A program made the position numbers and the translations under genes. Shown in pieces: positions 7,594-24,000 of a DNA stretch of 24,000 nt. The DNA is from Marinobacter litoralis (GTDB lineage: Bacteria; Pseudomonadota; Gammaproteobacteria; Pseudomonadales; Oleiphilaceae). Where the stretch lies: positions 64,550 through 88,549 of the forward strand of contig NZ_JAELVS010000003.1 in assembly GCF_016427555.1 (NCBI RefSeq). Direction: 5' to 3'. The notes below the pieces were generated by a model, which was not told where the DNA came from, ran no database searches, and saw nothing but the letters and a program-made list of their open reading frames with translations. Positions within the stretch are counted from its first letter, which is position 1. Every line of letters begins with the position of its first letter.

Positions 7594-7616
7594 CAAAAAA
7601 TATTGAAAACAACAAG

Positions 7617-8225: not shown

Positions 8226-9143
8226 ATGAGTTGTCGTAAAAAATCTTTGATCGCGAGAGCAAGACACAGCCTCAGACCGCTTGTCGCGGATGGAACGCTT
8301 TCTTATTCATCTTATGGATCCATCGTGGATAGATGGCTTGTGTTCGTGAATTTCCTGGTCGCACGAGAAGAAATACCTAAAGTGGAGGAAATCTCTAAAG
8401 ACTTGGTCATCGAATTTTCCAAAAGCCTGGCGGATACCCAGCCGTCTTATGCCCAAAACGTGATTTCATCAATAAACACCGTAATGAAAGCCCTTACCGA
8501 CGGTGACTGGGTCACTGTAAGTCCAGTCCGCGATTGCCTGATAGCACGCAGATGTAACGTCAGGACAACGCAACCGTCAGGAATGGACGATCACCAAATC
8601 AATAAAGCTCTAAAGCAACTGGAGAATGCGCACCTCTCCAGGGGGAGAGTTGTCGCTTTGGCCGCCAAAACGTTTGGCCTTAGGGTGAAAGAAGCAACCC
8701 TTTTGGATTACAAACAATCACTTCAACAGGCGCTATCAGATGGATATATAGATATCCGATTGGGAACAAAAGGAGGCCGTCCGCGACGTATCCCCATCAC
8801 TGCTCCGGACGAACAAATACCTGCTCTACGGTCCGGCGCCAAAATTCAGGGAGACCATTTCTCATTGATTCCGCCTGACATGACTTGGAAAAAATTCCGG
8901 GAAAATGAAATTGTGAAAACCCGGGCAGTACTCAAGTCCAACGGAATAGCCTCCATTAGAGACCTACGGGCTGCCTACGCCTGCCAGCGATATCAAAATG
9001 AGACTGGCAAACCAGCCCCTGTAATGGGTGGCCGAGCCACGAAAGAAGCCGATGAAAAGGCCCGGACAATCATTGCAGAAGAGCTTGGCCATAATCGCAC
9101 CAATGTCACAAATTCATACCTAGGTAAGAGCCATGCCAAATAA
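8226..9143 (+). CDS. tyrosine recombinase / phage-integrase-family protein
   Basis: Candidate catalytic residues are R in FGLRVKEA, K in GTKGGRPRRIP, R in IRDLRAAYA, and H-x-R...Y in LGHNRTNVTNSYLG. The N-terminal region has SAM/core-binding-like helices (SYAQNVISSINTVMKAL). The start is uncertain. ATG 8226 follows GAAGGGA; ATG 8211 and the TTG 8166 of the ORF track are alternatives. Confidence 0.65.
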   Translation: MSCRKKSLIARARHSLRPLVADGTLSYSSYGSIVDRWLVFVNFLVAREEIPKVEEISKDLVIEFSKSLADTQPSYAQNVISSINTVMKALTDGDWVTVSPVRDCLIARRCNVRTTQPSGMDDHQINKALKQLENAHLSRGRVVALAAKTFGLRVKEATLLDYKQSLQQALSDGYIDIRLGTKGGRPRRIPITAPDEQIPALRSGAKIQGDHFSLIPPDMTWKKFRENEIVKTRAVLKSNGIASIRDLRAAYACQRYQNETGKPAPVMGGRATKEADEKARTIIAEELGHNRTNVTNSYLGKSHAK

Positions 9144-9444
9144 ATCGAACAGCAGCAGGATCTTTTATATACGGTTAGCGAACTACGGCAAAAAAGGAGG
9201 AAAAAACCGAGCAAAAAAGAAAAAACAGATAGAGCTGGTTATTAAACACTGCGGGTGCAAGCCTGCCCAAATTGGAAAAAAACAGGTCAAAGCTTTCTTC
9301 CGAGCAAAAAACTACAAACCGAGCACGGAGAGAGACTACTACTATGCGCTCTGTGATTTTTGGGTACTGCTCGATCGCACTTCGAAACCTCCTAAACCTC
9401 CCGCCATCACCGCGCTCAATAAAGGCGGGGGCAATCTTGGGTAG
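9133..9444 (+). CDS. small basic protein, possibly an integrase N-terminal (SAM-like) domain remnant, 103 aa
   Basis: The ATG overlaps the recombinase stop by 11 nt (GCCATGCCAAATAA). It has a Lys-rich N-terminus. The segment GKKQVKAFFRAKNYKPSTERDYYYALCDFWVLLDRTSKPPKPP resembles phage-integrase N-terminal domains. This is a weak call. Confidence 0.35.
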   Translation: MPNKSNSSRIFYIRLANYGKKGGKNRAKKKKQIELVIKHCGCKPAQIGKKQVKAFFRAKNYKPSTERDYYYALCDFWVLLDRTSKPPKPPAITALNKGGGNLG

Positions 9445-9552
9445 CTAAAATCCCAATATTCTCTCTTGCCAGTGTCATGAAGCTTGAGCCCATTGTGAGT
9501 TTCAGGGGGCTCTAAACCCGCTTCCGGCGCTAAGATTTAGGCGTAAAACCAA

Positions 9553-10173
9553 CTAAACTTCAGCGGTGTGATGGAACACCGGCCGGAATCCTCGCGAAAA
9601 GGTTTTTACTACTGTAGACGGTGTAAGAACCTCTACCGTTTCAGGCAACCTATCATGAACCGCCTTTCGGTATCCCGACGCATTCCAGGCGAGTAAACCA
9701 TTCTCAGAAATTGCATAGGCAGCGTTATCAATCAGAACCATTGTTCCATGCGGAAGATCCTGAAGTTGACCTTTCCAAGTAATTTTTCGGCTGTCTTCTA
9801 TACGCTCCTCGTGGAGCATCTCATCCAACTCCGCAGAACGCACATTGCGCGCTTCAGTCCAAGCACTTGCTGACTGCCAGGCATCGCGGAACTCGTTATA
9901 ACGTTTTCGCCGGCATTCGGCGCAAGGCCGATGGCCGGCAGCGAAAGCCGTGACCTCATCAAGGAAAAAGAGCTCCGTATACCGTCCTGGCGTCATTAGC
10001 TCACGCTTCCGACCTTTAAACTCGAGCAAACATGTAATCCATGCTTTGGTTTTAAACTGACGCGTTACCTCGCGCTTGCCATTGTGCAATACCCCGCGGT
10101 TGCCCATATACGTGCCCCTTGCAGAGCTTTCTTCAATAGTGCCTTGGGGATTAACCCGATTCTGTAATGGCAT
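9553..10173 (-). CDS. conserved hypothetical protein with a Cys/His motif, 206 aa
   Basis: GGGAGAG RBS lies 8 nt before the ATG, and the gene starts 19 nt after the SNF2 stop on the same strand. The segments MPLQNRVNPQGT...GNRGVLHN and YTELFFLDEVTAFAAGHRPCAECRR look like a conserved domain of unknown function. Confidence 0.6.
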   Translation of the reverse strand: MPLQNRVNPQGTIEESSARGTYMGNRGVLHNGKREVTRQFKTKAWITCLLEFKGRKRELMTPGRYTELFFLDEVTAFAAGHRPCAECRRKRYNEFRDAWQSASAWTEARNVRSAELDEMLHEERIEDSRKITWKGQLQDLPHGTMVLIDNAAYAISENGLLAWNASGYRKAVHDRLPETVEVLTPSTVVKTFSRGFRPVFHHTAEV

Positions 10174-10192
10174 CTAAATCTCTCCCTGAACC

Positions 10193-13100
10193 CTAAGTAC
10201 TTGCTACAACGTAATCGAACCATTCCCCGAGCAAAGCCTTCTCCTCATCCTGAAAGTCCCCTGCCGGAAAATTCAACTGTGCTTCAGGTGAAGCATTCCT
10301 GCTGAGCCGGAAATTCACAAACGGAAATCGGTTATTAAGCCTTAGCAACTTTAGCAGTTGATCCTTCCCTTTGAACGCACCGACGACATTCTCCGACAGG
10401 GCATCAATTGTGTCGCTTGAAAGCGGACTTAAGAGCTGTTCAATAGGGCCAGACATAGTTTGGAAACTCAACCAAGTCTGAGGCGCGCGACTGGCCGTTC
10501 TCTCGCGAGGCAAAGCTACTGGTAGTGGTCTCGGCCCAGACACATTTTTGGCATTAATCTCGTCAATGGTGAGGTCCTGGATGCCATGGAAAAGTCTGGC
10601 CTCTAGCTCGTCAGAAAACTTCTTAATGCTCTCGAGACCCATTCGAAATTCCTCTAAAGACAGCCACTGCATCGTCCCTCGCCGAACAAACAGAGGAAAA
10701 TTGACGCGGGTGCTGAGGTAGAAATGACTGTTACCCGAGTCCTCGTCGACCGCCACGCGAACTAATGGGTACGATTGGCTCAGTTCATCAATCAATGTTT
10801 TCAACTCAGTGAGGGCTATCTTTTCAAAATTCTCGCGATTAGCAATTGGCGACGCAAAACTCACTATGTAGGCTGTCTCAGGACTCAAAGCCGAAAACCG
10901 AGGTGAAAAACCAAGCGTTGCGAATATAGGCTGGTGCCGCCGGGATTGCCCTCGCTCAATGCGTGGATCAATGATGAACAAAAGCTTTGGTGATGTCTGG
11001 CTCGACCGAGCTTCGATGATTTTGTCGTTCAGCGGATCACAAGCACTTTCGAGATGCGCTCGGATGGTCTCTGCGATATCGGAAAAAGTATGGGTATCCT
11101 GCGGCTGGTAGCAGGAATCTAATGTTTCAGGCCGATCAAATCTTGCCGGATAAGGATCGACCACCTCTTCCTCAGAATGATCAATTGGTGTTCTGAAAAG
11201 CTGCCCCCAATCCTTGTTTGCGGTCGGACGATATTCAGAATCAAATTTCGTCTGTAGGCAGGCATCCATTCGTTCTTCCACCTGATGTTTTCGCTCAATG
11301 AAAGAAGCCACTTGATCCTCATCCACGGAACCCTCTAGGTAGGGGTAATGGATACCCAGATCGCCTTTGCCAGATTCCAGCCGTTTATTGACGCACCCGA
11401 ACAAACGGTCAATCCGCCCTACCCTCTGTTCGTTATCCCCCGGTGATCCCGCTATTCCATAGTGGTGCACCTGATGACAATTCATGTGCAGATTCACCCC
11501 TTCCTGGAATACCGAGGTAGAAACCAGAACGTTGGGGTAAAAGGGGCTGTTAAAACCCAGTATCAGGCGTTGGCGGGCGCTGTTATTTTCACCACTGGCG
11601 TACCAGGCTGGACTGGTCAAACCTTTTAAGCTTCGCCATTCCTTACGCCAATCTCCGACACCATGGTCAACAATTTTGTCGCAAAGTGCTTCGAAGGTTT
11701 CCAGGGCCGCGACAAAGTAGCGGAGTAACAAAGAGCCTTTGATTTTTTCCTGCCGAACGAAATCATAGAATCCTCGGTACCACTCCTGCACATTGGCAAT
11801 CCTTCCTTTGCGGCGATACTCTGCAAACCAGCTATACAACTCCACGATCACTGGGCTCGCATGTAAAAATCCGGCTCGAATATAGTTCCCGAAGTTTTCC
11901 GCAACGGGCTTACTTGTGTTTGCCCATCTAAGCATTTGCTCCTGAAGCTTGCCAGGAAGTTCATTGAAAACCAGTTTCCATACTGTAAACAGCTCCTGAG
12001 TGTAGGCTGTTTGCGGTGCTTCAGTTTTGCCCACGGCTTCTCGCAAATCGGCAGCACTGTTCCAACGGGAAAACCGTTCATAACGAGCAGCCACACCGTA
12101 GTTGGCCCGCGTACGCTCTGAATCCCCATAAAAGTAGCTGTATCCGCCTTTGAGGTAATCACTGGACGGCTCAAGAAACAGCGAGAACAGACTTTCATGT
12201 TTGGTAAAACGCCGCCGCACATTTACACAATCGGTCTGGCCACCAGCTGCGCCTTCCTTAACAACAAACAGCTGAGCAACCCTTGATGCCAGATAATCCT
12301 CTTCCATGCCGTCAGCGTCTTCGTCATCCGCATCTACTTCCGCGCTTTCATCCTGAACGTCACCCGTTCTTACGCTTTCTAAAAGCTGTTCAAATTCGTT
12401 GCGGGAAAAGCTTTTAAGCCTTGGCTGTCCGTGAGAGTCAAATGAGGACAAGCCCAATCCGGAAAGCAGCATTTCACCTAACATTTGGTCGTAACGCTCA
12501 TTTAAGCGCTGGGTTAATTCTCTGACCGAAGGAATGCGACGAACAAAAATCAGATGTTTAAGGTTGCTGAGTGGCAACTGGTATAAATCCGCCTTTTTAG
12601 GAACACACGCCTCAATCAACCGACCGTATTTTGGGTGCCCGGGAAATCGATCGAATGCCTTATAGAAACTGTCGGTAAGCCCCATGAGCAGATTGGTATC
12701 CGGAGCCGTCGAGTAATCGGTCTTGCCTTTATCACCATCAGACGTATCCCGGTCAGGATCCTGCCGCGAGGCCTCGTCTGTTATGAGATCTCGGCCAACG
12801 GACTCAAACCCTTCCAGATACCCGTACATCAGACTTTTGTTTTCATTTTTCTTGTTTAGTTCAGCTACCAGGCCTTTCTGGTAAAGGGCAAAAAAGCCTT
12901 CTGCCTCGGGTTTTCCATCAAATGTCGCCGGCATAGGCTTTTCATGTCGGTAATGCCGTTTACTGAAGAGCTTTCCATTGGCCTCCATAAGCCGCATCCG
13001 TCGCAGTCCATAGTTATTGAGCAGGTAACTGGCGCGATCAGCTTCACTTGTCCATCCGTCCCCGGAATCCAAGAAGTAACTGAAAATGCTGTTTACATCC

Positions 13101-13849
13101 GAAAGACGGGTATGACTGGGCGTTGCTGTCAGCAATAAAGCTCTTTGTGAGAGTGGATCGTGCTTGGTACCAAAAAACGCCCCGGCTGCAGCAACCCGCT
13201 GAGAGCCGCCGTGAATATTCCTAAGGTAATGGGCCTCGTCAACGATGATCAAGTCGAAGCCCTCAGGACCAAGAGCACTTTTGATGCTCTCGTGAATCTC
13301 TTGTGCTCTTTCTCCGGCGACTATGTCAGGGCTACGACCATCAGTGTCTTCGCCCCGTAGCAAGCCACTCAATGAATGAATCGTGGTGAGATAAAAATGG
13401 GAAACGCCCTGGCTCACTGCGGCATCTAGATCAGCTAATGACTTACAGATTTCTATGCTGGGAACGACACCTCCATCAACACTGTTCTTAACGGTGTGGT
13501 CGACAACCCGGTAGTGGGAACTCACCAAGTTGTTAAATTCCCGGCGCCAGTGCAGGCATAAATCCCTGTTGGGTGCCATCACCAAAACTCGGGCATCAGG
13601 TTTCCTCTTCCATAACAGCGCTGCAACCCCCAGCGCCTGGAAGGTCTTGCCCATACCTACTTCATCCGCCAGCAGAGCCACTTTCTGTTCCGCTAACACA
13701 TTCCATAAGTAGGCGACCCCTTCGGTCTGTTTAGCAGGCATAGATTGGCGGTCGTGCGCACTATAGCGCCAGTCTTTCTGGCCACGATTGAAGTTGATCC
13801 ACTCCGAGACCATGTCGGGACTTAACAGCCCCCAATCGGATACGCTCAT
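10193..13849 (-). CDS. SNF2-family (superfamily-2) helicase/translocase, 1218 aa
   Basis: Motif I is LLADEVGMGKTFQALG (nt 13643-13666), and Ia is LVMAPN. Motif II is IIVDEAHYLRN (DEAH at 13229-13240), and III is LLLTATPSHTR. Motif V is STSVFQEGVNLH, and VI is NEQRVGRIDRLFG. The ATG overlaps the PLD gene stop (ATGA). The last ~400 aa carry no recognisable motif. Confidence 0.9.
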   Translation of the reverse strand: MSVSDWGLLSPDMVSEWINFNRGQKDWRYSAHDRQSMPAKQTEGVAYLWNVLAEQKVALLADEVGMGKTFQALGVAALLWKRKPDARVLVMAPNRDLCLHWRREFNNLVSSHYRVVDHTVKNSVDGGVVPSIEICKSLADLDAAVSQGVSHFYLTTIHSLSGLLRGEDTDGRSPDIVAGERAQEIHESIKSALGPEGFDLIIVDEAHYLRNIHGGSQRVAAAGAFFGTKHDPLSQRALLLTATPSHTRLSDVNSIFSYFLDSGDGWTSEADRASYLLNNYGLRRMRLMEANGKLFSKRHYRHEKPMPATFDGKPEAEGFFALYQKGLVAELNKKNENKSLMYGYLEGFESVGRDLITDEASRQDPDRDTSDGDKGKTDYSTAPDTNLLMGLTDSFYKAFDRFPGHPKYGRLIEACVPKKADLYQLPLSNLKHLIFVRRIPSVRELTQRLNERYDQMLGEMLLSGLGLSSFDSHGQPRLKSFSRNEFEQLLESVRTGDVQDESAEVDADDEDADGMEEDYLASRVAQLFVVKEGAAGGQTDCVNVRRRFTKHESLFSLFLEPSSDYLKGGYSYFYGDSERTRANYGVAARYERFSRWNSAADLREAVGKTEAPQTAYTQELFTVWKLVFNELPGKLQEQMLRWANTSKPVAENFGNYIRAGFLHASPVIVELYSWFAEYRRKGRIANVQEWYRGFYDFVRQEKIKGSLLLRYFVAALETFEALCDKIVDHGVGDWRKEWRSLKGLTSPAWYASGENNSARQRLILGFNSPFYPNVLVSTSVFQEGVNLHMNCHQVHHYGIAGSPGDNEQRVGRIDRLFGCVNKRLESGKGDLGIHYPYLEGSVDEDQVASFIERKHQVEERMDACLQTKFDSEYRPTANKDWGQLFRTPIDHSEEEVVDPYPARFDRPETLDSCYQPQDTHTFSDIAETIRAHLESACDPLNDKIIEARSSQTSPKLLFIIDPRIERGQSRRHQPIFATLGFSPRFSALSPETAYIVSFASPIANRENFEKIALTELKTLIDELSQSYPLVRVAVDEDSGNSHFYLSTRVNFPLFVRRGTMQWLSLEEFRMGLESIKKFSDELEARLFHGIQDLTIDEINAKNVSGPRPLPVALPRERTASRAPQTWLSFQTMSGPIEQLLSPLSSDTIDALSENVVGAFKGKDQLLKLLRLNNRFPFVNFRLSRNASPEAQLNFPAGDFQDEEKALLGEWFDYVVAST

Positions 13850-15798
13850 TTTCCTTCCCTGTTAGAGCTACGGCGAAAGTATTCGTCGGTTAACCATGCG
13901 CGGTATTCTTCACTGACCGATGCCGGCAGCGCCGGTTCCGCAACAATCAAAGCTTCCCATCTTTGGAATGTTTTCTCAGATCCAGCACCGACTAACTCTG
14001 CCTGCTTTGAACGGGCCGTACTGCATAGCTGATTAACCTCCTGGGTAAGAAACCAGTTAAACAGAGTAGGCGCAGAGCTACTCTCAATGCGGTGCACCGT
14101 TTTTTCTACCAGCTCTTGGAGACACCCAGGACGAATGAACGCCCAATACTCCAGTTCTTTCTGATCCCGGCAACCAGCCAACAGCTCCTCATAGTGATGG
14201 CAAGCAGAGAACAGCCGAAAATAACTGATGTCAGCCGATTGATGTTCATGTTCGGAGACCACAGCGGCATCGTCTGAGACCAGAGCGTCAACCAACGCCC
14301 GCCCATCATCGTCCTCCTCGACGCGGTAGGCAGCAGCATCGGTAGGAGGTTCACCGCCGGATAGCACCAACGCATCCAGCAAGCCTCGTAGATCCTCATA
14401 CTGTTGAGCTCTTCGGAAGATCGGACGTGTTTCAATAATCAAACCTTTTGCGATCGCAACATCACCGCTGAGTACCTCATAATTGCGGTCTACTAAAAGC
14501 GGTTTCGTGGATGCTACCGGCAACTCCAGTTTCTGTAGTACGAAAACATCACCGTGAGAATCAACCACCCATTGAAGCTTCACTGAATGGGAAAGTCCGG
14601 GAAGTTCTAGCTCAAACTCACAATCAGGCTCCGACGTACCAACCCACACTCCCGAAATGTAAAAACGCTCGATTTGCCAGTCAAACACCACGCGCAGATC
14701 AAAAGGCGGGGGCTCCGGGACTCGAAGACTTTCCTGCTCCATTTGGTCTGGTGTCGCAAATAAAGCTTCAGACAACGGCAACACCTCACCCACATACTCC
14801 GCCAAAGGAGACTCATCAACGATAAGCAAACCTGCTTCTACGTTATGGATGGGATAGCCACCGTCTGGTATCAAATTGCTCCCAGGCTGAGTGAAATTCC
14901 AGGATCCAATCGCTAATCGATCCGGTGTTTTCCAAAGCTTTGCATGGGTCATAAAGCTTCGGTGATCACGTTTGGAGGGGCTCTGGTGCAAAGAGAGCAG
15001 CCCTTGCTCGTGCAACTTGGCCAAGCCCTGGTTCCATTCAGCGCGTAAATACTGATTCTCTACCCTGTCTGGTACCAGCTGAACCCGAAGGTCAGGAGCT
15101 ACTGCAAAACGCTGTAAGTTCCTCACGTACTTACTGATATCTCTTGAAAAATAAGGGGACCAAACGGCAAGTTCACTTGGTTTGCTATCAAAAAGACGAT
15201 TAAGAAAGGGTATCCCTGCCAGACTATGACAGAAGCTCACCCCCGGATCCTCCGTCTGACCCGGGATGGAAAAATCTTCAGGGAATCGTTCTTGAACGTT
15301 GGTAAACACTGGCTGAAAGAAACTTCTAACGGATTCCGCCATGCTCCGACTTGCCACCGGAACAAAGGAGAACAGCTCCTGATTTCTGCCCCAGCCATCC
15401 ACGGTCAGGTTTGCGCTCCCGGAACCAAGAGCAGAACCTTTGTCGCCCTGAAGATAGATAACCTTTGCGTGGAACAGACTGTGCTCAGAGAAAGAAATGT
15501 CTCCATTGGATGACAATCTTTCCGGTGAAACGCCATGAATTGGAATTGCGGTTCGTTTATTCTGATCTGGCTCGATGAATCGCTTGTCACAGAACACTCG
15601 AATATCGATACCCCGCTCGCTCAGTACCTGCTGCATCCCCTCATAGTCCATTCTAAGCTTTGGGGGATCCATCCCTAGAATGGTCGGTAAAAGGTAGGTT
15701 TCGATAAATTCGATGTTGATGACGAAACTGGTGAGCCAAACCCGCTGAAGCGTGCCTACTTCGTCAATCTGTTTTCGGAAAGTCGAGAGCAATTTCAA
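13846..15798 (-). CDS. phospholipase-D-family nuclease with two HKD motifs, 650 aa
   Basis: HKD 1 is HAKVIYLQGDKGSALGSGSANLT (nt 15403-15471). HKD 2 is HAKLWKTPDRLAIGSWNFT (nt 14890-14946). The TTG start (15796-15798) overlaps the upstream TGA (TTGA) and follows GGGGGTGA. The C-terminal ~300 aa are unassigned. Confidence 0.85.
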   Translation of the reverse strand: MKLLSTFRKQIDEVGTLQRVWLTSFVINIEFIETYLLPTILGMDPPKLRMDYEGMQQVLSERGIDIRVFCDKRFIEPDQNKRTAIPIHGVSPERLSSNGDISFSEHSLFHAKVIYLQGDKGSALGSGSANLTVDGWGRNQELFSFVPVASRSMAESVRSFFQPVFTNVQERFPEDFSIPGQTEDPGVSFCHSLAGIPFLNRLFDSKPSELAVWSPYFSRDISKYVRNLQRFAVAPDLRVQLVPDRVENQYLRAEWNQGLAKLHEQGLLSLHQSPSKRDHRSFMTHAKLWKTPDRLAIGSWNFTQPGSNLIPDGGYPIHNVEAGLLIVDESPLAEYVGEVLPLSEALFATPDQMEQESLRVPEPPPFDLRVVFDWQIERFYISGVWVGTSEPDCEFELELPGLSHSVKLQWVVDSHGDVFVLQKLELPVASTKPLLVDRNYEVLSGDVAIAKGLIIETRPIFRRAQQYEDLRGLLDALVLSGGEPPTDAAAYRVEEDDDGRALVDALVSDDAAVVSEHEHQSADISYFRLFSACHHYEELLAGCRDQKELEYWAFIRPGCLQELVEKTVHRIESSSAPTLFNWFLTQEVNQLCSTARSKQAELVGAGSEKTFQRWEALIVAEPALPASVSEEYRAWLTDEYFRRSSNREGK

Positions 15799-17240
15799 TG
15801 ATCACCCCCGTAGTAGCCGCTGACCAGGAAATTAAACTGATGCAAATAGTAAGAATTCACCCAAGAACCAGGTGGGCGGTCACCTGCAACCGGTAACGAT
15901 GCCGTTCGGCCATGGTTATGAACTTCCCCGCTCCGCGCCAGCTCGACCCAGCGTAATTGGCCCCGCTGCTTCATGACGGTCGCATGGTAATCCAGTAAAG
16001 CGACAAGCTGTTCTTCTACGGTATTCAAGCGGGCAATTTGAAGTATTTTTTCCAAACGCTTTCGGCCTGTTTCTTGAAGAGGAACCCGAATTTCAGGGTG
16101 GTCAACGATTGTCTCAGCGTAACTTTGTAGCGTGGTTTCGGAACGACCGAGCCGCTGCCAGTGATCCCGAATTTCTGCCACGGCCTGAACCTTCTTGTGT
16201 CGGGCAACTCGAAAGAGCAAATCTACTTCAGCAAGCAAAGGTTCAATACGCTGGATGTTCTGAAGTTTCTGGCGTTCAGCGGTTTCACCATCAAAGGTCT
16301 TAACCGCCTCTTCAACAATGGACTGAGGGTTCAGTTTCTCCGGTGCAACATCATTGGCTTTGAACTGACTGAGCTTTTTTTTCATAACATTTAGAAGTTC
16401 ACCAGCAGATCCCTCGTTCAGTCCCGTCGCTGAAAGCCAGAAGTCCCGTGTTTCCGAGCCGACCTTGGCACCAGTAATGAAAGCCGTGCGGTAAGCGTTC
16501 TTTAGAACTGGCGAAATCTCCAGGAAATTAATCCTGGGAGGCACTTGGGACTTGGCCTGCGCTGAGTGAACAAGATTTACCAAGTGCCTTCTGACCTCTG
16601 TGAAGCAATAACGCAGTGAATCACTACTTGATAGCAGCTTCTCAAACTCAGCCCAGCGCTCTTGAGCCGTAGGATCAATATAGCGGTAGTTCTGATCGAA
16701 GAACCCTATCTCTACAAACGGTGTTTTGTAACGACCGCTCACTCCCAAGCCCAGCTGGCGAACTAACAATTGGCCTGAAGGTTTATCCGTAAAAATCAGC
16801 TGGTGATCCCCTTTGCTCTCCTGCTCTTCCAAAACGGCGCGACCTTTACTACCACCCAAGATACCGAGCGTATCGATACCCGCGTCCTCTGGTCGATGAA
16901 CCATTGAGTAGGTAAAGATATTCTCCAGATGTATCAGGCAGGCATGAATAAATGGCAGGCTATCTTTCGGCCCCAGCTCATTGGCAAGTGCATCGGACAC
17001 CTGAACTTCTTCATCGAGAAGTATCGAGCGAATCACACCATGATGCAGCAAGTTGAGCGTAAAATTTCGGACATCATTTGAGACGGAGTTTACGCGGTTT
17101 CGGAAGACCTGTTGGCCATAAGCCGACCAGATAACCAGCTGGCCGAGCGGGTCGATAAACGAATCACCAGACAAGGAGTCATCGTATTCGGTAAGCATAT
17201 CCTTAAGCTTCATAAGACAGTCCAATCCTTGGAGAAACAA
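15795..17240 (-). CDS. hypothetical protein, no family recognised (up to 481 aa)
   Basis: Long ORF with coding-like composition, flanked without gaps by the GIY-YIG gene (stop 17241-17243) and the PLD gene (4-nt overlap). The start is uncertain. TTG 17238-17240 abuts the upstream stop; ATG 17211-17213 is the alternative. Confidence 0.6.
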   Translation of the reverse strand: MFLQGLDCLMKLKDMLTEYDDSLSGDSFIDPLGQLVIWSAYGQQVFRNRVNSVSNDVRNFTLNLLHHGVIRSILLDEEVQVSDALANELGPKDSLPFIHACLIHLENIFTYSMVHRPEDAGIDTLGILGGSKGRAVLEEQESKGDHQLIFTDKPSGQLLVRQLGLGVSGRYKTPFVEIGFFDQNYRYIDPTAQERWAEFEKLLSSSDSLRYCFTEVRRHLVNLVHSAQAKSQVPPRINFLEISPVLKNAYRTAFITGAKVGSETRDFWLSATGLNEGSAGELLNVMKKKLSQFKANDVAPEKLNPQSIVEEAVKTFDGETAERQKLQNIQRIEPLLAEVDLLFRVARHKKVQAVAEIRDHWQRLGRSETTLQSYAETIVDHPEIRVPLQETGRKRLEKILQIARLNTVEEQLVALLDYHATVMKQRGQLRWVELARSGEVHNHGRTASLPVAGDRPPGSWVNSYYLHQFNFLVSGYYGGDH

Positions 17241-18155
17241 TCACGTTAAAGCTTCCGGCTCCAGCTTCTCAGCCTCCCAAGCCTTATACGTTTTCCCTTC
17301 CGGTAATCGCCATTCAGTGGTGCCATTGGTTGGACGGCCATTCACCACTGCCGCTGCAGCACTTGGGCTTTTAAACGCGTAGTTCTCGGTAAACACAGCA
17401 AGCTCTCCCTCTGGGCGTATGACACCCGCTGCCACCAGCTCACCATGCAGCTTACTGTAGCCAGTGTGGTGAGTGCTCTTACCTCGCCATCTGGGACTGA
17501 CTTTGGAGCCCGTGAGAACCACAAATTCCCCATCCGTGAGCACAGCTTTGGCCTCGATAGCATGCTTGGGGGTTCGAAGTTCAAACACTGTATCCGGCTC
17601 ATCTGGGTCAGCAGAGGAAACTGAACCTGTTTTTGCCTGCGGTCGAGTCTGAGCAAGAAAACTGTCGATACGTATGGCGGGCAGCACCATCATAAGGTAC
17701 TCAAGAAAGCTCTCCATATTGGCCTGCGCAGCCTCACTCAGCGAGGAGCGCGGGGGTGTATTGCCATTGTCTAGTCGGATTTTGCCAGCCCGTCGAGCCT
17801 CTTCAACCAGCCTGGATTCCAGATACTTTGCATGTGCCTTATTAAGGTTATTCCCGGCAGTCGTTATAAGAACCGCAGTGGTCCACCAATCCTTGGACGT
17901 GTCATGGCTTTTAATCCGCCCGCCGATATCCTCACCCTCCCCGATGTAAGCCAACGGACCGTCATCATCTTCGCCAAACAACAAATATACGCCAGTGTAG
18001 CTGGCTTCCGGCCTCTTCAAGGCGGCTCCCAGGCGCGTGCGCGGAGCCATGAGCACATGACCCGTCCAGTTAAACACCTCGGCTGTCAGCATGCCGTCGG
18101 GTTTTCCATCGATGAAGAATAGTTCGAGAGACTGCCCTTTATTGTTAATCATCAT
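17241..18155 (-). CDS. GIY-YIG nuclease family protein with C-terminal DUF4357-like domain, 304 aa
   Basis: GIY-YIG core is GVYLLFGEDDDGPLAYIGEGEDIGGRIKSH followed by AKYLESRLV. The C-terminal FVVLTGSKVS...FTENYAFKSPSAAAAVVNGRPTNGTTEWR matches the DUF4357 pattern, which occurs in restriction-modification (R-M) and defence neighbourhoods. Confidence 0.8.
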   Translation of the reverse strand: MMINNKGQSLELFFIDGKPDGMLTAEVFNWTGHVLMAPRTRLGAALKRPEASYTGVYLLFGEDDDGPLAYIGEGEDIGGRIKSHDTSKDWWTTAVLITTAGNNLNKAHAKYLESRLVEEARRAGKIRLDNGNTPPRSSLSEAAQANMESFLEYLMMVLPAIRIDSFLAQTRPQAKTGSVSSADPDEPDTVFELRTPKHAIEAKAVLTDGEFVVLTGSKVSPRWRGKSTHHTGYSKLHGELVAAGVIRPEGELAVFTENYAFKSPSAAAAVVNGRPTNGTTEWRLPEGKTYKAWEAEKLEPEALT

Positions 18156-18197
18156 TCTCTGCTATCGTTGATTCGACTTTTTACTGCTTTATCGTGT

Positions 18198-20039
18198 CTA
18201 CCTTCGGGTTTGAAACGCAAAGCTCCGCCGCCCAACCACTCGAAAATCTCGTGAGCCAGCAAGTTTCTGCTCGTACTCCACACCAGCTCCGTTCACTCGA
18301 AGGTACCGCTTTGTCTTGCAAGACTTACAATCTGTCGCAAAGCTACTGGGTTCTTGATGAACCAGCTTTACTGGACTTGAGCAAACCGGACATCGCTCAA
18401 GTACCATGATTTCCTGTTGTCTTCTGCCCAACTCCCTCACTTGAGAAGCTGCATTGTCATCGACAAGTGACCGCTCAACCCGTGAAAGATCACCCTCGCT
18501 CAGACCCTCTACAAGTCTAATTTCATGTCGTTTCGATTCTACTGCCAGGCCTTTAATTTCTCGCGCGATTCTTAGTGAATTGGCTGGGACTTTTAAGATC
18601 GGGCAACCGTATCCAGCCACCAGCTCCCTCTGTAAAAGCTGATCGATCAGATAACCAAATCTTTCGACGCTATACAGGTCGAACGGCGATAGCTGAATCC
18701 ATATGCCATCGATGGGAACTTCACTGGAATACAAGTGTTCGTCCGTCAATTTTGGCCAAGCCACTACTCTAGACAAAGGGTGATCGAAATTCTGCTCCGC
18801 AGAAAGTTCGTTTGGACGTTCGCCCAACTCCAACCAAGGAACAACTTCCAAGAGAATTTTTTCTGTTCTGCTTGAGTCATCGGGAGATAAAATCAACTGC
18901 CAGTCGAGCCCTACCTGTCTCAGCTCAAGATTCAGCCCGGCCCAACGCGATGAAAACTCAGTTCTGAGATAAGGTGCCAAAGCATGACGAAGAACCAGAC
19001 CGGCGTATCTCGAATACGTTAGGTTCAGCGCTTCGTTTCGCGCGCATCGTTCCTCAGGCGTCGTCTGTTTACCGCCAACGACACTCCGTAACTCATTCCA
19101 AAGGACAGGTAAATGGCGGTAATGCTGATCATGGCTCAGGATATTCGTAAGATGCAGTCCGTCTCCGATATTTACGCCGCGGTTCACCAACAGGTACAAA
19201 CCTCTCTGCTTGAGACCTCGAACTATACCAAGCGCATTCTCTAGCTGTTCCAGCGTTTCGGCTAGCTGTTCGGACGCTTTATTGGTTGAATCCTGAGTAA
19301 AGGCTTTTCCCCAAAGCCTGCATATTTCGTCAGTCAGGCGATGATGAAGCTCATTAGTTCCGTAAAACTCCAACGCCTCATTAACGGCAGACTGGATCTG
19401 CTTTAGCGTGCCGACTCGTTTGCACAAATATTGCTCGATTTTGTCAAGCAACCTTGCGTACACACGATTTTCATAGATATTAAAGTCGTCCTCGCTAAAC
19501 CGGGCTTTCACTCTCTTGGGTATAACACCGGACAAGGTCTGGCGCTGCCAGCACTCAGAATGCGAGGCCAGATGCACCAAGGCTCCTTTAGCTAACTTCT
19601 TGGCCCTCGCGACATCCGTGACCTCTTCTTCGTAGTGCAGGTCCAACCTAGGTCTCATCGATATTTGATGAAGGTGCCCCGCTCCGATGGTCTCGATCAG
19701 TTTCAAATCAAATGAGTTTAGGTGACTATCTTCGTTAACCACACCCTCAGGCATTAATGGTGATGCCAGCCCATTTCCACTCTCGATGCTTGAATCTATC
19801 GTATCCAGGATGCGCTCGAATAAATCGGCTTTCTGGACGATTGCCTTATCCGGCAACCTAAAGGATTTTCGCTCGCCATCGACATTGGCAATTTCGCTCC
19901 CATCGTCAACCAAGAGACCGCTCGTTCCCACACCTAAAGATTTTGGATGTCCAGCCGTTGCCTCAGCTAAATAACGGCCGGACTCGACAACGTCAGGTAA
20001 ACGCTCGATAGCCTTCCCAGTCAGCCGATCCACCCACAT
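18198..20039 (-). CDS. McrC-like (DUF2357-type) partner protein with C-terminal zinc ribbon, 613 aa
   Basis: The ATG overlaps the McrB-like gene stop (TAATG). DFNIYENRVYARLL resembles the conserved ENR segment of McrC/DUF2357 proteins. A PD-(D/E)xK-like stretch SPDDSSRTEKILLEVVPW follows. The tail has CPVC-x17-CKSC. The assignment rests on position plus weak motifs. Confidence 0.55.
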   Translation of the reverse strand: MWVDRLTGKAIERLPDVVESGRYLAEATAGHPKSLGVGTSGLLVDDGSEIANVDGERKSFRLPDKAIVQKADLFERILDTIDSSIESGNGLASPLMPEGVVNEDSHLNSFDLKLIETIGAGHLHQISMRPRLDLHYEEEVTDVARAKKLAKGALVHLASHSECWQRQTLSGVIPKRVKARFSEDDFNIYENRVYARLLDKIEQYLCKRVGTLKQIQSAVNEALEFYGTNELHHRLTDEICRLWGKAFTQDSTNKASEQLAETLEQLENALGIVRGLKQRGLYLLVNRGVNIGDGLHLTNILSHDQHYRHLPVLWNELRSVVGGKQTTPEERCARNEALNLTYSRYAGLVLRHALAPYLRTEFSSRWAGLNLELRQVGLDWQLILSPDDSSRTEKILLEVVPWLELGERPNELSAEQNFDHPLSRVVAWPKLTDEHLYSSEVPIDGIWIQLSPFDLYSVERFGYLIDQLLQRELVAGYGCPILKVPANSLRIAREIKGLAVESKRHEIRLVEGLSEGDLSRVERSLVDDNAASQVRELGRRQQEIMVLERCPVCSSPVKLVHQEPSSFATDCKSCKTKRYLRVNGAGVEYEQKLAGSRDFRVVGRRSFAFQTRR

Positions 20040-22498
20040 TAAAACCCGCCCTCTTTCCTTTTGATGTCTTTCTCCAAAAGATCAAGTGAGGTCACTGGAA
20101 GACTATCCAGGCCCGTTCCGCTCCAGAACGCTTCCAATGAAGACATCAATTTTCGAACGGAATCCGCGCTTACATCGAAGCGACCTGTTACCTTACCCTG
20201 GCGCATTATTCTGCTCGCTAGCAGGTGATCCAGAGCCTCACCCCTGGTCGCCCCTGATGACATCATCACGGGGATAAACCTGAGCGCCTGCTTCTCAAAG
20301 CGGTTGCCCCACCCCAGACCAAAGTCAGTCTCAAGCTGTTTTGTAAAGTCGTTTTCGGTTAATTTACCTAGCAAATCTTTCACAGAGGCGGTGTGCTCCC
20401 CGCAGGCAGAATCGAAGGCTTTCTGAAGAGAACTGAATGAATAGCTCGCAGGTGGATATTCCTTGATACGGAAACTGTGATCCTGCTTCGGAAGTGTCAT
20501 CACATGTGACCGATCATAAGTCTTATCAGCTAGCTCATTAGTCGTCTCGTCATGATTTGCCGTGCCGATAAACCAAACGTTGTTCGGCACAAGAATCTGG
20601 CGCCCATCCCTCAGCATATTTGGTGCCCCGGGCAACTCTGTTTCAGAAAGGCTGATTAGTCGCTCGGCCGGATTATTTTTTTCAAGAGCGGACAAGAATT
20701 CTGCGAAATATTGCTCTGGTCGAGAGAGGTTCATCTCATCAAGCAAGATCACATTACAAGAGTCTTGCCAGCGAGGGGCCTGTGCCTTGTATAGAGCTTG
20801 CAAGCAGTCCTTCTCGTAGAAACGGCGCTCAAAGGCGTTGAAATGACCCAGCAAATCATCGCGATCTCTCCAGCCTGCCTGCACGGCTATGTCCTGACAG
20901 AACCCTCCCATGGCCTTAGCAAAGGCCTTCGCAAGGCTCGTTTTACCCGTGCCACTAATTCCTTGGAACACGTGTAACTGACTCATAGCCAAACCACCGA
21001 GAAGCAGCCTGATATCCTCAATCGGATAGAATAGCTCCACATTCTTTTCAGCTCGGGCAATACGGTGCTGAAGTTCTTCTGCAAAGGACTTCAAATCTGG
21101 CACATGCTCAAGTTCGATGCTGGCCTGGAAGGCTTTATCAGTGTCCATGATCGACATCGCAGGGAACGCTGTTTTGGCCTTTTGCGCATTGGTCAATTGA
21201 TCAATACGAGTTTCAAGATCATCAATGTGGACCGCTAACGTATTTTTGTGAGATTCGAGAACCCGCTTCTCCCGGGCAATGGCTTCAAGCTCCGTAGCAG
21301 CTACACGCTTCACGCTCAACTCTCGACGCGCTTCGTCAAGTTCCGGGCGCAGAGCGGCAATGTCTCGCTCCAAGTCTGAGACTTTATCCCGTAGATATTG
21401 ATTGTCTTGCTGCAACCCAGCGGTGTCTGAAGATTCCAGCTGTCTTTTCAGCTCGCGATTTTCAGCAGTCAATCTCTCTAAATTCTCAAGTATTTCTGCC
21501 GGAGAGCGCTCGCCCAGTGCAGTACCCAACTCCTGGAGGTCATGTAACCGTTCTTGTAGCGTCTGAACCTTTTCCCAAGCCTTCTCTCTCTGTGCAGATA
21601 CCTTCGCCAACTCGAGCGCAAACCCCTTTCGCTCAGCTTCCATTCCCTCAGCTATGCGATTTTCTAGCTCAGCTTGCTCTGTTTTGAGTTCTGACCAATC
21701 GCGGTCCAGCCTTGTTCTATCGCGACTTAGCTTTGCCTTTTCCTGGCTGAGCTCATGCTCTCTCGCATCAAGCGCGTCAATTCGCTGAGCTTCTGCGTCA
21801 GAACAGCTATGCCTGATTTCTGCCAGCTTTCGTGCAGCCTGCTTTATTTCCTCTCCAAGCGCGGTCTTCTGATCCTGTAGATCCTTCAGATCTGATTCTC
21901 GCTGCACAATCAGCTGACGCTGTTGCTCTTCCAGTTGCCGCAGTGCTTTCTCATTCTCCTCTGCAAATCCTGCCTCAGCATTCGCCTCTCTCTGCTTAAG
22001 CAATCGTTCGAGGCTCAAAAGATCATTTTTCTTGGTTGCTAACTCCTGCTCCAGCTCGTCTATGCCGGCAACTCGTTGCTCCAAGGCCTCACGGTCTGCC
22101 TCAACCCGCTCAGCTTCGAGTTGCAGCCGTTTGTGTTCGGCATTGTTTTCTTCACCAAGCTTGCTGGCCTTCTCCCAACGTTGGATATATTCCTCGTTGA
22201 GCTTCTCCTGGTATTTGCTGAGCTCCTTACACACCTCTGCAAATCGCTCAATCCATCTCGCTATTGAGGCAGTGTCCTCAGTCTTCTGAAGCGCATCCAG
22301 GACCCGACCGATCAATTCTTTGTCGACGTCAATATCTAGGTTTGAACCAGTGGCTTGATAGACCTTTGATGCATTCTCAAACGAGGCTGCCCATATCGGA
22401 CCATGCTTTTCGAGTGACGCAGCCTGACGAGAAGGTGCAGCGGGAGCTCCTGTTGCCACCGGGGAGGCATTGCGTTTGTTTCCATTCTTCTTGGCCAT
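20039..22498 (-). CDS. McrB-like AAA+ (AAA_5/COG1401) NTPase with long N-terminal coiled coil, 819 aa
   Basis: Residues ~95-450 are E/K/R/L/Q-rich with almost no Pro or Gly, as expected for a coiled coil. P-loop is FQGISGTGKTSLAKAF (nt 20936-20962). Walker B is VILLDEMNLSRPEQYFAEFLSALE. FIGTANHDETTNELADKTYDRSHV sits at the McrB signature position. TAATG overlaps occur at both ends of the gene. Confidence 0.85.
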   Translation of the reverse strand: MAKKNGNKRNASPVATGAPAAPSRQAASLEKHGPIWAASFENASKVYQATGSNLDIDVDKELIGRVLDALQKTEDTASIARWIERFAEVCKELSKYQEKLNEEYIQRWEKASKLGEENNAEHKRLQLEAERVEADREALEQRVAGIDELEQELATKKNDLLSLERLLKQREANAEAGFAEENEKALRQLEEQQRQLIVQRESDLKDLQDQKTALGEEIKQAARKLAEIRHSCSDAEAQRIDALDAREHELSQEKAKLSRDRTRLDRDWSELKTEQAELENRIAEGMEAERKGFALELAKVSAQREKAWEKVQTLQERLHDLQELGTALGERSPAEILENLERLTAENRELKRQLESSDTAGLQQDNQYLRDKVSDLERDIAALRPELDEARRELSVKRVAATELEAIAREKRVLESHKNTLAVHIDDLETRIDQLTNAQKAKTAFPAMSIMDTDKAFQASIELEHVPDLKSFAEELQHRIARAEKNVELFYPIEDIRLLLGGLAMSQLHVFQGISGTGKTSLAKAFAKAMGGFCQDIAVQAGWRDRDDLLGHFNAFERRFYEKDCLQALYKAQAPRWQDSCNVILLDEMNLSRPEQYFAEFLSALEKNNPAERLISLSETELPGAPNMLRDGRQILVPNNVWFIGTANHDETTNELADKTYDRSHVMTLPKQDHSFRIKEYPPASYSFSSLQKAFDSACGEHTASVKDLLGKLTENDFTKQLETDFGLGWGNRFEKQALRFIPVMMSSGATRGEALDHLLASRIMRQGKVTGRFDVSADSVRKLMSSLEAFWSGTGLDSLPVTSLDLLEKDIKRKEGGF

Positions 22499-23988
22499 TA
22501 CATCCAGTCCTTAAAGCATTCCGTGAAATTCTTTGCATACGTCATCTGTTCTATCACCAGGTCCTGAGTAATCTCTTTCGACCTCCGTTTATTGAAACGA
22601 CTCTGTCCATGGCTACTCTGATTCCGAAGGTCAGCCAGATCTAACAACTGCATTAGCTGTAAGTCCGAATCTTGCAAAACCTTTAGCGGGTGCTGATCGT
22701 CGTTGAGTGCCCCCATTCCCGCGGCAAACAGTAAGGCTTTGAGAGAGCTTGATGGGTTGCGACACGATTTGATGACGTCATCTAAGCGCTGCCTCGCTAA
22801 TATTCGAATGACATCTTCGGTGAAAGATGGAATACCCAATGCGCCAAGCAACCCTTCATTCAGACTCCAGTTCGATTTCTTCGCGGATGGTATCTGCCCC
22901 ACATTCGCAGGGTAGGTCTTGATCAACCATTGCATAACCACTTCGAGAAGCTTCTGACAGTCACCGAGAGCAGCCTCCAAATCAGAATCCCAAGTCAGTC
23001 CCGATTCGATTCTGCGTCGCCACTTCAATATTCGGGCGAAATACCGCTTGATGTCGGGCTGAGCCTCTACCCAGGGGTACTCGATCAAAATATCCAGCTC
23101 CGTTCTCTTTTGAAGCTCTCTCAACCACTCTTCATTAGTCAGTGCCCCTGCGTCTGGAATACCAATCAGCGGCGCGAGAAAATTCCGAAGCTTAGTGTCT
23201 GAGTCCAGCAACTGCCTCACAGGCTCTTCGAGCCACCAGGCGCCTTCCCTGAGCCCAAACGGATCCCTTACTGACCAGAGCTCGTCCCCCTCATCATCAC
23301 CCGTTATCCAAACCACAATTCTCGCGGCCTCCGGTGAATCGTCCAGACGCTGAATGCCCTGCAATCGCACAGAATCAGATGACGAATGCAAGCCGTCCAT
23401 TTGCTGGCTGGCCCGAAAATCTTTCCGATAGTCACGGTAGGCCCGAGCGAGCCCCTCGTTATCTAAAGCAGGCAGGTTTTGCTTTTTTGATCTGGCGAGA
23501 TAGGGCCGGAAGGTGTGACCTGTCCGTCTCTCAACAGAAAACTCCGGAAACCTGGCTTGCGGATCCAGAGGCTCTATTTGTTCGAGCCTTGTTACCATTC
23601 GTGGCCAGAAATCACCGCTTATCGCGTCCTGAATCAGGAAGCCAGCCTTGAGATTCGACGACTCATCTTCCTCAGCGTCCAGCAGCTTGTGTCCTTCATC
23701 CGTCAGAGCATCCGCCCCCGTGGTCAACCAACCATGACTAATCCCTTGCGCAATAATCAGGGCGATCAATTCCGGGTGTAGACCAGTCAGAGCGGCAATA
23801 TCATCCTGTCTGGTGCATTTGGCCCTGATCAGTCCCAAAACCGCTCGCTGAAACAAATTCAACTCGGGCTGCCTTGGTTCAGGATAGAGAACTCGATGAA
23901 CAAGGACCGGCCAAAGAATCGCTTTCGATTTTGACCTGGGCCGATCGCTGAATTTGAGATAGCTGCCAGTTTCAACGAACGCTGCCAT
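22498..23988 (-). CDS. hypothetical protein with N-terminal wHTH-like segment and C-terminal R-x4-H (HEPN-like) motif, 496 aa
   Basis: ATG 23986-23988 is preceded by GGAGG plus a 5-nt spacer; the ORF-track GTG at 24000 is less likely. LNLFQRAVLGLIRAKCTRQDDIAALTGLHPELIALIIAQGISHGWL is wHTH-like. DLRNQSSHG (R-N-Q-S-S-H at nt 22609-22626) lies 42 aa from the C-terminus. Confidence 0.65.
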   Translation of the reverse strand: MAAFVETGSYLKFSDRPRSKSKAILWPVLVHRVLYPEPRQPELNLFQRAVLGLIRAKCTRQDDIAALTGLHPELIALIIAQGISHGWLTTGADALTDEGHKLLDAEEDESSNLKAGFLIQDAISGDFWPRMVTRLEQIEPLDPQARFPEFSVERRTGHTFRPYLARSKKQNLPALDNEGLARAYRDYRKDFRASQQMDGLHSSSDSVRLQGIQRLDDSPEAARIVVWITGDDEGDELWSVRDPFGLREGAWWLEEPVRQLLDSDTKLRNFLAPLIGIPDAGALTNEEWLRELQKRTELDILIEYPWVEAQPDIKRYFARILKWRRRIESGLTWDSDLEAALGDCQKLLEVVMQWLIKTYPANVGQIPSAKKSNWSLNEGLLGALGIPSFTEDVIRILARQRLDDVIKSCRNPSSSLKALLFAAGMGALNDDQHPLKVLQDSDLQLMQLLDLADLRNQSSHGQSRFNKRRSKEITQDLVIEQMTYAKNFTECFKDWM

Positions 23989-24000
23989 GGTCACCTCCAC

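Follow-up and report, generated by a model that had tools for sequence, protein, structure and literature searches.

A Marinobacter locus very probably representing the 3' half of a Type II CoCoNuT anti-phage operon

Described systems closest to the locus

Type II CoCoNuTs were described as CnuH-CnuE-CnuB-CnuC modules with TerY-P (Bell et al., eLife 2024; PMC11090510), the TerY-P triad—a VWA protein, a PP2C phosphatase and a Ser/Thr kinase with a C-terminal zinc ribbon—being their usual companion (PMC11090510). Their CnuH, encoded directly upstream, is a UPF1-like SF1 helicase possessing a helical insertion after Walker A as well as an N-terminal SPB OB-fold and RTL, and their CnuE is a wHTH-HEPN effector composed of an elongated wHTH and one HEPN domain with the RxxxxH motif (PMC11090510). 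CnuB of this type is a McrB-like GTPase with a shortened NxD motif, usually followed by E or D; it contains a long N-terminal coiled coil and lacks the CSD and YTH domains as well as the Type I-A hallmark, a helical insert separating Walker B from NxD (PMC11090510). Finally, the Type II CnuC opens with a short beta-sandwich and further contains DUF2357, a PD-(D/E)xK domain that is inactivated, and a zinc ribbon bearing two or three CPxC motifs (PMC11090510).

As far as function is concerned, Obangsin (Obs; obsA-obsG/cnuC) from Pseudomonas aeruginosa PMM16 is a seven-gene Type II CoCoNuT with cnuC in the last position, the seven genes of which together were reported to defend P. aeruginosa against PP7, LeviOr01 and MPK7, the protection covering ssRNA phages plus one DNA phage (bioRxiv 10.64898/2026.04.06.716636). 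Transposon insertions in both obsC and obsG/cnuC were recovered there in a screen for restored productivity of the RNA phage (bioRxiv 10.64898/2026.04.06.716636); being third in the a-to-g order, obsC should precede cnuH. A literature search revealed no experimentally tested Type II CoCoNuT besides Obs, and the view that CoCoNuTs lack experimental characterisation, held in a preliminary description of the present locus, is outdated. The Obs host differs from that of the locus studied here, and the likeness between the two was judged from gene content.

The trio in the window and its upstream continuation

The window, i.e. the whole 24,000-nucleotide stretch of DNA from Marinobacter litoralis that was analysed, contains near its end the following features:

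23972..24000, minus strand: 3' end of cnuH, the last 29 nt of the gene (9 codons and the TGA stop; frame and stop read from the sequence)
23988..22498, minus strand: cnuE, 496 aa, with GGAGGT 6 nt before the ATG
22498..20039, minus strand: cnuB, 819 aa
20039..18198, minus strand: cnuC, 613 aa

The three co-directional genes and their two TAATG overlaps, seen already in the preliminary description, were confirmed at these positions, both the cnuE/cnuB and the cnuB/cnuC junction sharing 1 nt (GGATGTAATGGCC and TTTTAATGTGG, respectively). Since each of the three proteins has hundreds of full-length homologues with 40-98% identity, chance ORFs can be excluded for the trio. The domain matches and the gene order also bear out its earlier reading as a CoCoNuT-type module derived from McrBC.

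The trio very probably belongs to a Type II CoCoNuT anti-phage operon of seven genes, of which it makes up the 3' half and which is cut by the window edge inside cnuH, the assignment to Type II being based on features compared with the published description rather than on a direct alignment with the type sequences of Bell et al. The upstream genes, i.e. the bulk of cnuH and TerY-P, were read on a public contig (L001) that shows 100% identity to the window across the 11,503 nt common to both and continues upstream; only the end of cnuH, overlapping the start of cnuE by 17 nt, lies inside the window. On that contig, cnuH (6622-10017) encodes a 1131-aa UPF1-like SF1 helicase with matches to Pfam AAA_11 (4e-30), stretched by an insertion over residues 417-813, and AAA_12 (2e-38; residues 840-1101), the N-terminal ~415 residues being left unassigned by Pfam. 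It is preceded by the TerY-P triad, with Pfam matches to VWA/VWA_2, PP2C_2 and Pkinase, the kinase ending in a zinc ribbon (CDGC at 312 and CFFC at 332). The order of the operon is thus terY-like VWA, PP2C phosphatase, Ser/Thr kinase with Zn ribbon, cnuH, cnuE, cnuB and cnuC, and the junctions along the cassette measure -1, +4, +6, -17, -1 and -1 nt.

The preliminary description had taken the module to be devoid of the usual helicase and, hence, possibly an undescribed variant; with CnuH and TerY-P found on L001 immediately upstream, just past the window end, the trio is not a new variant. The locus is genuine and represents an ordinary case of a system already known, and its novelty is low. 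An 85-aa ORF located 5' of the VWA gene on L001 was considered as a BrnT-like toxin and rejected; as it matches no family and is not conserved, it is probably not a gene. A scan for promoters and terminators over positions 7000-24000 yielded sites no more numerous than in shuffled sequence, so that the boundaries of the operon are not given by it.

Features of the encoded proteins

Judged from its sequence features, the 496-aa protein, unrecognised in the preliminary description, is CnuE, the described wHTH-HEPN effector of Type II CoCoNuTs. An elongated wHTH at the N-terminus is joined through a helical linker to one HEPN domain at the C-terminus, the wHTH and the HEPN-like motif having been recognised earlier and now substantiated by a match of residues 49-107 to Pfam PF24409 (wHTH-PRTase_assc) and by the single Rx4H motif (R455-NQSS-H460), which is invariant in all 119 sequences covering it. 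The support for HEPN comes from homologues: the HEPN_RiboL-PSP model matches the C-terminal ~350-495 region in 9 of 28 alignment members, with two of the nine exceeding the gathering score and the window protein itself being below the Pfam threshold. In the AF2 model (pLDDT 80), the C-terminal half is all-alpha. When the AF2 models of full-length CnuE and full-length CnuC were compared with the PDB by Foldseek, nothing reached E <= 0.001, the output consisting only of short MarR-like wHTH matches and coiled-coil noise; CnuE had no significant match to a solved HEPN in that search, and the CnuE-family profile HMM hit among PDB sequences only a primase, at chance level. The reference accessions of Bell et al. 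were not among the cluster members of ten CnuE homologues.

CnuB combines an N-terminal coiled coil of ~375 aa with a McrB-like AAA+ GTPase bearing the NxD signature (N649-H-D651-E). The region ~70-445 is composed to 60-82% of E, K, R, Q, D, L and A, is nearly devoid of Pro and Gly, and matches coiled-coil models of SMC, JetC and LmuB. The GTPase part shows Walker A (GISGTGKT, 513-520), Walker B (VILLDEMNL, 583-591) and GTANHDE (645-651); together with a Pfam AAA_5 match over 511-663 and the SMC-type matches, these motifs uphold the previous view of the 819-aa protein as a coiled-coil McrB homologue, here of the NxD branch. The PADLOC model PDC-M26A is matched at 3.6e-36, and Escherichia coli McrB (PDB 6HZ4) could be aligned to residues 488-655 at a marginal E of 0.0098, NHD standing opposite NTAD with one residue fewer. 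From Walker A to Walker B, CnuB exhibits 41% identity to the published Type I-A CnuB TBC54486.1; between the aligned blocks there are 30 residues in CnuB vs 92 in TBC54486.1, i.e. CnuB is without the Type I-A insert. No Pfam match to a CSD or YTH domain was obtained for CnuB.

CnuC is a McrC homologue that starts with a small beta domain, followed by DUF2357, which includes a long helical hairpin, by an alpha/beta domain of degenerate PD-(D/E)xK-like type and, at the C-terminus, by a zinc ribbon, its AF2 model presenting strands at the N-terminus and the alpha/beta domain plus ribbon at the C-terminus. DUF2357 matches 22 of 24 alignment members, the score of the window protein (3.2e-4) being below the Pfam threshold. 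Of the two elements pointed out previously in this protein, the ENR segment stands—as IYENR at 188-192, with Y189, E190 and N191 unchanged throughout 120 sequences, namely the window protein and 119 homologues—and the PD-(D/E)xK-like stretch proved degenerate, a conserved (D/E)xK being absent from the same 120 sequences and position 398 being occupied by T in 77 of them. The stretch P452-x-D454...E459-R460 forms an invariant cluster, which might represent a non-canonical active site, CnuC then being a second working nuclease and not a dead adaptor. The zinc ribbon contains CPVC (550-553) and CKSC (571-574), all four cysteines being invariant or nearly so (C574 in 119/120), and Lar-type zinc-ribbon matches occur in six alignment members. 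Foldseek against the PDB did not confirm the folds of the beta-sandwich and the nuclease-like domain, the CnuC-family profile HMM had no match among PDB sequences, and BLASTP of the window CnuC against one Type I-A CnuC revealed no similarity.

With E. coli McrBC (Type IV) the locus shares the AAA+ GTPase core, including Walker A, Walker B (DEMN/DEIN) and the sensor Asn motif, as well as a partner protein that has a DUF2357/McrC domain at its N-terminus, and the translational coupling of the two genes. McrB, however, has NxxD as the GTPase motif and a DNA-binding domain at its N-terminus, whereas CnuB has NxD and a coiled coil; moreover, the McrC homologue here is without a conserved (D/E)xK, and genes for a helicase, a HEPN protein and TerY-P stand alongside. 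A classical McrBC system, defined by NxxD, the N-terminal DNA-binding domain and a catalytic D...(D/E)xK, is ruled out by the NxD, the coiled coil and the lack of the conserved (D/E)xK.

Conservation, alternative readings and proposed mechanism

Gene order is the same for all seven genes in 32 loci, each from a different species, as far as the contigs extend, the TerY-P triad being kept in every related locus with a contig long enough. The co-occurrence of homologues of the 496-aa gene with coiled-coil McrB genes, suggested earlier as a check, was found in 32/32 loci, cnuE being positioned in each of them between the helicase gene and cnuB. Compared with the published Type II CoCoNuTs, the locus has the same seven-gene order with overlapping frames, a CnuB with only the N-terminal coiled coil and NxD(E), a CnuE with the wHTH and a single RxxxxH HEPN, a CnuC with DUF2357, the degenerate PD-(D/E)xK and two Cys pairs in its zinc ribbon, a kinase with a zinc ribbon, and a position among other defence genes in Gammaproteobacteria; there is no difference of substance.

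A free-standing three-gene CoCoNuT variant, with the wHTH-HEPN protein in place of the helicase partner, would fit the fact that only the trio is visible as complete cassette ORFs within the window, but the window carries also the final 29 nt of the helicase gene overlapping cnuE, CnuH (with TerY-P where the contig reaches) lies directly upstream on L001 and in 32/32 related loci, and no locus with the 496-aa gene but without the helicase was seen among the related loci examined; the probability of this variant is therefore practically negligible. Two independent adjoining systems, i.e. a Mokosh-like cnuH-cnuE (with TerY-P) and a McrBC-like type IV pair cnuB-cnuC, also have to be considered, cnuH-cnuE-like pairs being known outside CoCoNuTs, too (Bell et al., PMC11090510). 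Like the locus, Mokosh type I consists of a helicase gene (MkoA) followed by a wHTH-nuclease gene (MkoB, wHTH-PLD), and in PADLOC CnuH matches MkoA at 2e-81 and the N-terminal wHTH region of CnuE matches the MkoB N-terminus at 2.7e-5; the Mokosh effector is, however, PLD instead of HEPN, and here the kinase is a separate gene and the pair is coupled to the McrBC-like module. The division into two systems is very unlikely in view of the overlapping cnuE stop and cnuB start (TAATG), their pairing being invariant in 32 species across which CnuE identity is 43-76%; in addition, CnuC is without the conserved nuclease triad, so that cnuBC alone would have no obvious effector, and the P. aeruginosa insertions in obsC and obsG/cnuC both emerged from the screen mentioned above (bioRxiv 10.64898/2026.04.06.716636).

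Another CoCoNuT subtype instead of Type II is exceedingly unlikely. Although CnuH, CnuE, TerY-P and a coiled-coil CnuB are common to Types II and III-A (PMC11090510), in Type III-A there are two HEPN domains in CnuE, and CnuC, devoid of a zinc ribbon, is joined to Hsp70-like NBD/SBD and HEAT repeats (PMC11090510), whereas the CnuE studied here has one Rx4H motif and the 613-aa CnuC has the CPxC/CxxC ribbon with no Hsp70 or HEAT match. Type I, for its part, was rejected; it lacks CnuH and CnuE and possesses a CSD in CnuB, the latter not matched here.

For the Type II CoCoNuT, the molecular mechanism is inferred, after Bell et al. (2024). CnuB would act as a GTP-driven McrB-like ring engaged by CnuC via DUF2357; CnuC would have lost the canonical nuclease triad and presumably binds nucleic acid or serves as an adaptor. 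Through the long coiled coils, this motor may be connected with CnuE and with the RNA/ssDNA helicase CnuH. The one HEPN domain of CnuE would be the actual nuclease, cutting phage and/or host RNA, with abortive infection or restriction of RNA as the outcome; the TerY-P triad of kinase, phosphatase and VWA protein could represent the activation switch.

With the architecture catalogued in 2024, the family widespread in Gammaproteobacteria and the phenotype reported in P. aeruginosa, the locus carries little weight as a discovery. It calls for caution in that a known multi-gene system cut off at a window edge may be mistaken for a new, smaller variant, and, as a well-annotated example, it has some value as material for mechanistic work on CoCoNuTs, with the conserved residues R455 and H460 of CnuE, K519 and N649 of CnuB, and D454, E459 and R460 of CnuC as targets for mutagenesis.

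Concerning the neighbourhood, related loci harbour upstream genes for RtcR-like sigma-54 activators, a YprA/MZB helicase, PLD and GmrSD, as in the published superoperons. In the ~3.8 kb that immediately precede the cassette in the Marinobacter genome, no RtcR-like gene was noted; this segment holds instead genes for a Type I RM HsdS, an AAA_13 protein and a NucS-like protein. A candidate sigma-54-like promoter is situated upstream of the VWA gene. The downstream genes correspond to the PADLOC candidate systems PDC-S14 and PDC-M27, which are on the same strand, with gaps of 42 and 0 nt, and are absent from the other 32 loci. The Type II CoCoNuT and these island-specific same-strand neighbours (Type I RM, AAA_13 and NucS-like; PDC-S14 and PDC-M27) might form one co-transcribed unit in a Marinobacter-like lineage, this suggestion and, separately, that of the non-canonical CnuC active site being jointly rated as rather improbable. 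The nearest relatives of the trio proteins are from Marinobacter, those from Pseudomonas being ~45-60% identical.

Gene order of the cassette

The trio at 18198-23988 consists of three co-directional, translationally coupled genes, the coordinates and both stop/start overlaps of the preliminary description having been verified; TAATG with a 1-nt overlap is found at the cnuE/cnuB and cnuB/cnuC junctions alike:

23988..22498, minus strand: cnuE, 496 aa, head-to-tail with cnuB
22498..20039, minus strand: cnuB, 819 aa
20039..18198, minus strand: cnuC, 613 aa

A Shine-Dalgarno sequence, GGAGGT, is located 6 nt 5' of the cnuE ATG. Each of the three proteins has hundreds of full-length homologues, and the ORFs are thus real genes.

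An exact-sequence look-up with the 496-aa protein led to one public contig, Logan SRR13594299_873 (64.9 kb; hereafter L001), identical to the window in all 11,503 overlapping bases. On the same strand, 5' of cnuE, it encodes:

a VWA protein
a PP2C phosphatase
a Ser/Thr kinase with a zinc ribbon (CDGC..CFFC)
an SF1 helicase, 1131 aa (AAA_11 spread over 417-813; AAA_12 at 840-1101)

The 3' end of the helicase gene reaches 17 nt into cnuE, its last nine codons and stop occupying window positions 24000..23972, a fragment that could not be recognised at the window edge. The intergenic distances along the seven-gene cassette are -1, +4, +6, -17, -1 and -1 nt.

Relatives of the 496-aa protein, surveyed with one genome per species, were found in 32 loci from Marinobacter, Marinobacterium, Marinospirillum, Pseudomonas, Stutzerimonas, Aeromonas, Aquitalea, Marinomonas, Kangiella, Salinibius and other genera. 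In all of them, as far as the contigs reach, tblastn with the L001 proteins revealed the seven genes in identical order (full-length identities 40-94%), none of the 32 having the 496-aa gene without the helicase. The proposed co-occurrence with coiled-coil McrBC pairs is therefore borne out, always within the known seven-gene cassette.

Domains of CnuE, CnuB and CnuC and the type assignment

The sequence features of the three proteins are as follows:

CnuE 49-107: wHTH (PF24409)
CnuE 455-460: HEPN motif R-NQSS-H, only one copy
CnuB from 513: Walker A, GISGTGKT
CnuB from 583: Walker B, VILLDEMNL
CnuB from 645: GTANHDE
CnuB 511-663: AAA_5 (Pfam)
CnuC 188-192: IYENR, within a weak DUF2357 match
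CnuC C-terminal: zinc-ribbon pair CPVC...CKSC

Several of these had been pointed out before, namely the wHTH and HEPN-like motif of the first protein, the coiled coil and P-loop/DEMNL/GTANHD core of the second, and the ENR segment of the last one, and these were recovered here.

Concerning CnuE, residues R455, N456 and H460 are invariant in the 119 sequences covering the position (alignment of the window protein with 119 homologues). In 9 of 28 alignment members, two of them above the gathering score, the C-terminal part (~350-495) is matched by HEPN_RiboL-PSP (Pfam), and some homologues carry the NCBI name "HEPN domain-containing protein". In the AF2 model (pLDDT 80), the N-terminal region is an alpha/beta wHTH and the C-terminal half is entirely helical. 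Nothing useful was obtained against the PDB, either by Foldseek with the AF2 models of CnuE and CnuC or by their family profiles against PDB sequences.

In CnuB, the residues E/K/R/Q/D/L/A make up 60-82% of the segment ~70-445, which is nearly devoid of Pro and Gly and matches the SMC, JetC and LmuB coiled-coil models. The sole solved relative is E. coli McrB (6HZ4; E = 0.0098), the N-H-D of CnuB being aligned opposite N-T-A-D of McrB.

As for CnuC, the DUF2357 match is present in 22 of 24 alignment members. Among 120 sequences, Y189-E190-N191 and all four zinc-ribbon cysteines except C574 (C in 119) are invariant. In the same sequences, the beta-strands predicted for the alpha/beta domain at the C-terminus bear no conserved (D/E)xK, position 398 being T in 77, which fits the "inactivated nuclease" description of Bell et al. 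(2024; PMC11090510). The cluster P452-x-D454-x-Y456-x-x-E459-R460 is nevertheless invariant with the canonical (D/E)xK missing; candidate explanations, judged from the alignment, are a remnant, a surface for contacts and an active site of non-canonical type.

In the definition of Type II CoCoNuTs (coiled-coil nuclease tandems; PMC11090510), CnuH is an SF1 helicase resembling UPF1 that has a helical segment inserted behind Walker A and additional domains at its N-terminus. CnuE combines an elongated wHTH and a coiled coil with a single HEPN domain bearing RxxxxH. CnuB joins a coiled coil to a McrB-like GTPase in which NxD, usually followed by E/D, replaces NxxD, and CnuC comprises a beta-sandwich, DUF2357, a PD-(D/E)xK domain that has been inactivated, and a zinc ribbon, in many cases with two CPxC. 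Their reading frames frequently overlap, and a TerY-P triad (VWA, PP2C and zinc-ribbon kinase) accompanies them almost always (PMC11090510). Every defining element that was tested was found in the trio and the L001 upstream genes; the CoCoNuT assignment is supported, the "unrecognised" first gene is therefore cnuE, and the helicase expected earlier is CnuH, severed by the window edge. The suggested undescribed variant without a helicase is thus a window-boundary artefact, cnuH being positioned directly upstream on the identical contig. Type III-A is excluded by the single HEPN domain of CnuE and the absence of Hsp70/HEAT domains. With regard to Type I-A, the window CnuB shares 41% identity between Walker A and Walker B with the published TBC54486.1 (Supplementary file 3 of Bell et al.), but only 30 residues separate two aligned blocks versus 92 in the latter; the window protein thus lacks the insert specific to Type I-A, which agrees with the expectation for Types II and III alike. 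No CSD or YTH domain was detected in the window CnuB by the Pfam search, and the Type II reference accessions were not found among the cluster members of ten CnuE homologues. The locus is an ordinary member of the Type II CoCoNuTs, already described, widespread and phenotypically tested.

Experimental status and proposed mechanism

The view that CoCoNuTs lack experimental characterisation is out of date, since a defence phenotype was reported in a 2026 preprint for the seven-gene obs locus (obsA to obsG/cnuC) of P. aeruginosa PMM16, called Type II CoCoNuT by its authors (10.64898/2026.04.06.716636). [quoted passage not shown]

The identities of the domains, the translational coupling and the conservation of the cassette were observed; the following steps are inferred from McrBC structures and Bell et al. 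CnuB would form a GTP-hydrolysing ring, with CnuC setting its activity through DUF2357; CnuC, having presumably lost cleavage, may bind nucleic acid or act as a bridge by means of its zinc ribbon and degenerate nuclease fold. Through the long coiled coils this motor would be connected to the CnuH helicase and to CnuE. The HEPN domain of CnuE (R455, H460) is the probable working RNase, and TerY-P may gate the system through phosphorylation. The result may be either selective breakdown of phage RNA or abortive infection.

Flanking defence island and possible regulation

Five genes directly 3' of cnuC, on the same strand (9553-18155), match PADLOC candidate defence systems:

17241-18155, minus strand: PDC-S14, 304 aa, DUF4357, 42-nt gap from cnuC
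15795-17240, minus strand: PDC-M27A
13846-15798, minus strand: PDC-M27B, PLD
10193-13849, minus strand: PDC-M27C, SNF2 helicase, 1218 aa
9553-10173, minus strand: PDC-S40

These are absent from the 32 related loci and thus represent separate island cargo. Upstream of the cassette, on its strand, L001 1-3620 contains:

the end of a Type I RM specificity gene (Methylase_S)
an AAA_13 ATPase, 740 aa (PADLOC PDC-S06, 1e-290)
a NucS_C-like protein, 356 aa (PDC-S11, 6e-142)

The AAA_13 gene is common only to the Marinobacter locus L002, and the NucS-like gene only to L002, L003 (Marinobacterium), L027 and L030. Defence genes are densely packed in this region, forming an island of the kind reported for CoCoNuT superoperons. 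PADLOC-DB v2 has no CoCoNuT models: CnuB matched only the candidate PDC-M26A, CnuE only, and weakly, the MkoB N-terminus, and CnuC nothing. Automated annotation with this release would overlook the system.

The gene directly 5' of the VWA gene was inspected in ten related loci. In L024, L025 and L033 it encodes a sigma-54 activator resembling RtcR; in others of the ten it is of defence type (YprA/MZB helicase, PLD, GmrSD or Macro-domain), in agreement with the "superoperons" of Bell et al. At L001 3771-3786, ~60-75 nt 5' of the VWA/TerY start at 3847, the sequence TGGCATGGTTCTCGCA resembles a promoter of the sigma-54 type. Among 29 related loci, 19 have TGGCA[CT]-N7-GC in the 150 nt preceding the VWA gene, versus 0.7% of random 150-nt windows. 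This pattern is consistent with control of the cassette by RtcR-like sigma-54 activators. In window 7000-24000, a promoter/terminator scan turned up no excess of sites over shuffled sequence.

On the plus strand at window 8166-9444, two neighbouring ORFs that overlap weakly match integrase models (Integrase_1, 1.5e-9; Phage_int_SAM_4, 8e-4); they perhaps represent an integrase, split or degraded, at a mobile-island border. Within 1-8000, the window encodes:

1448-2701: ADP-ribosylglycohydrolase
2716-3318: OmpA-like barrel
4142-7069: UvrD-type helicase, 975 aa, with C-terminal Top1-type zinc ribbons

The G+C content drops from ~54-55% (1-3000) to 46-50% (3001-8000), a composition step within 1-8000 that may mark the island boundary.
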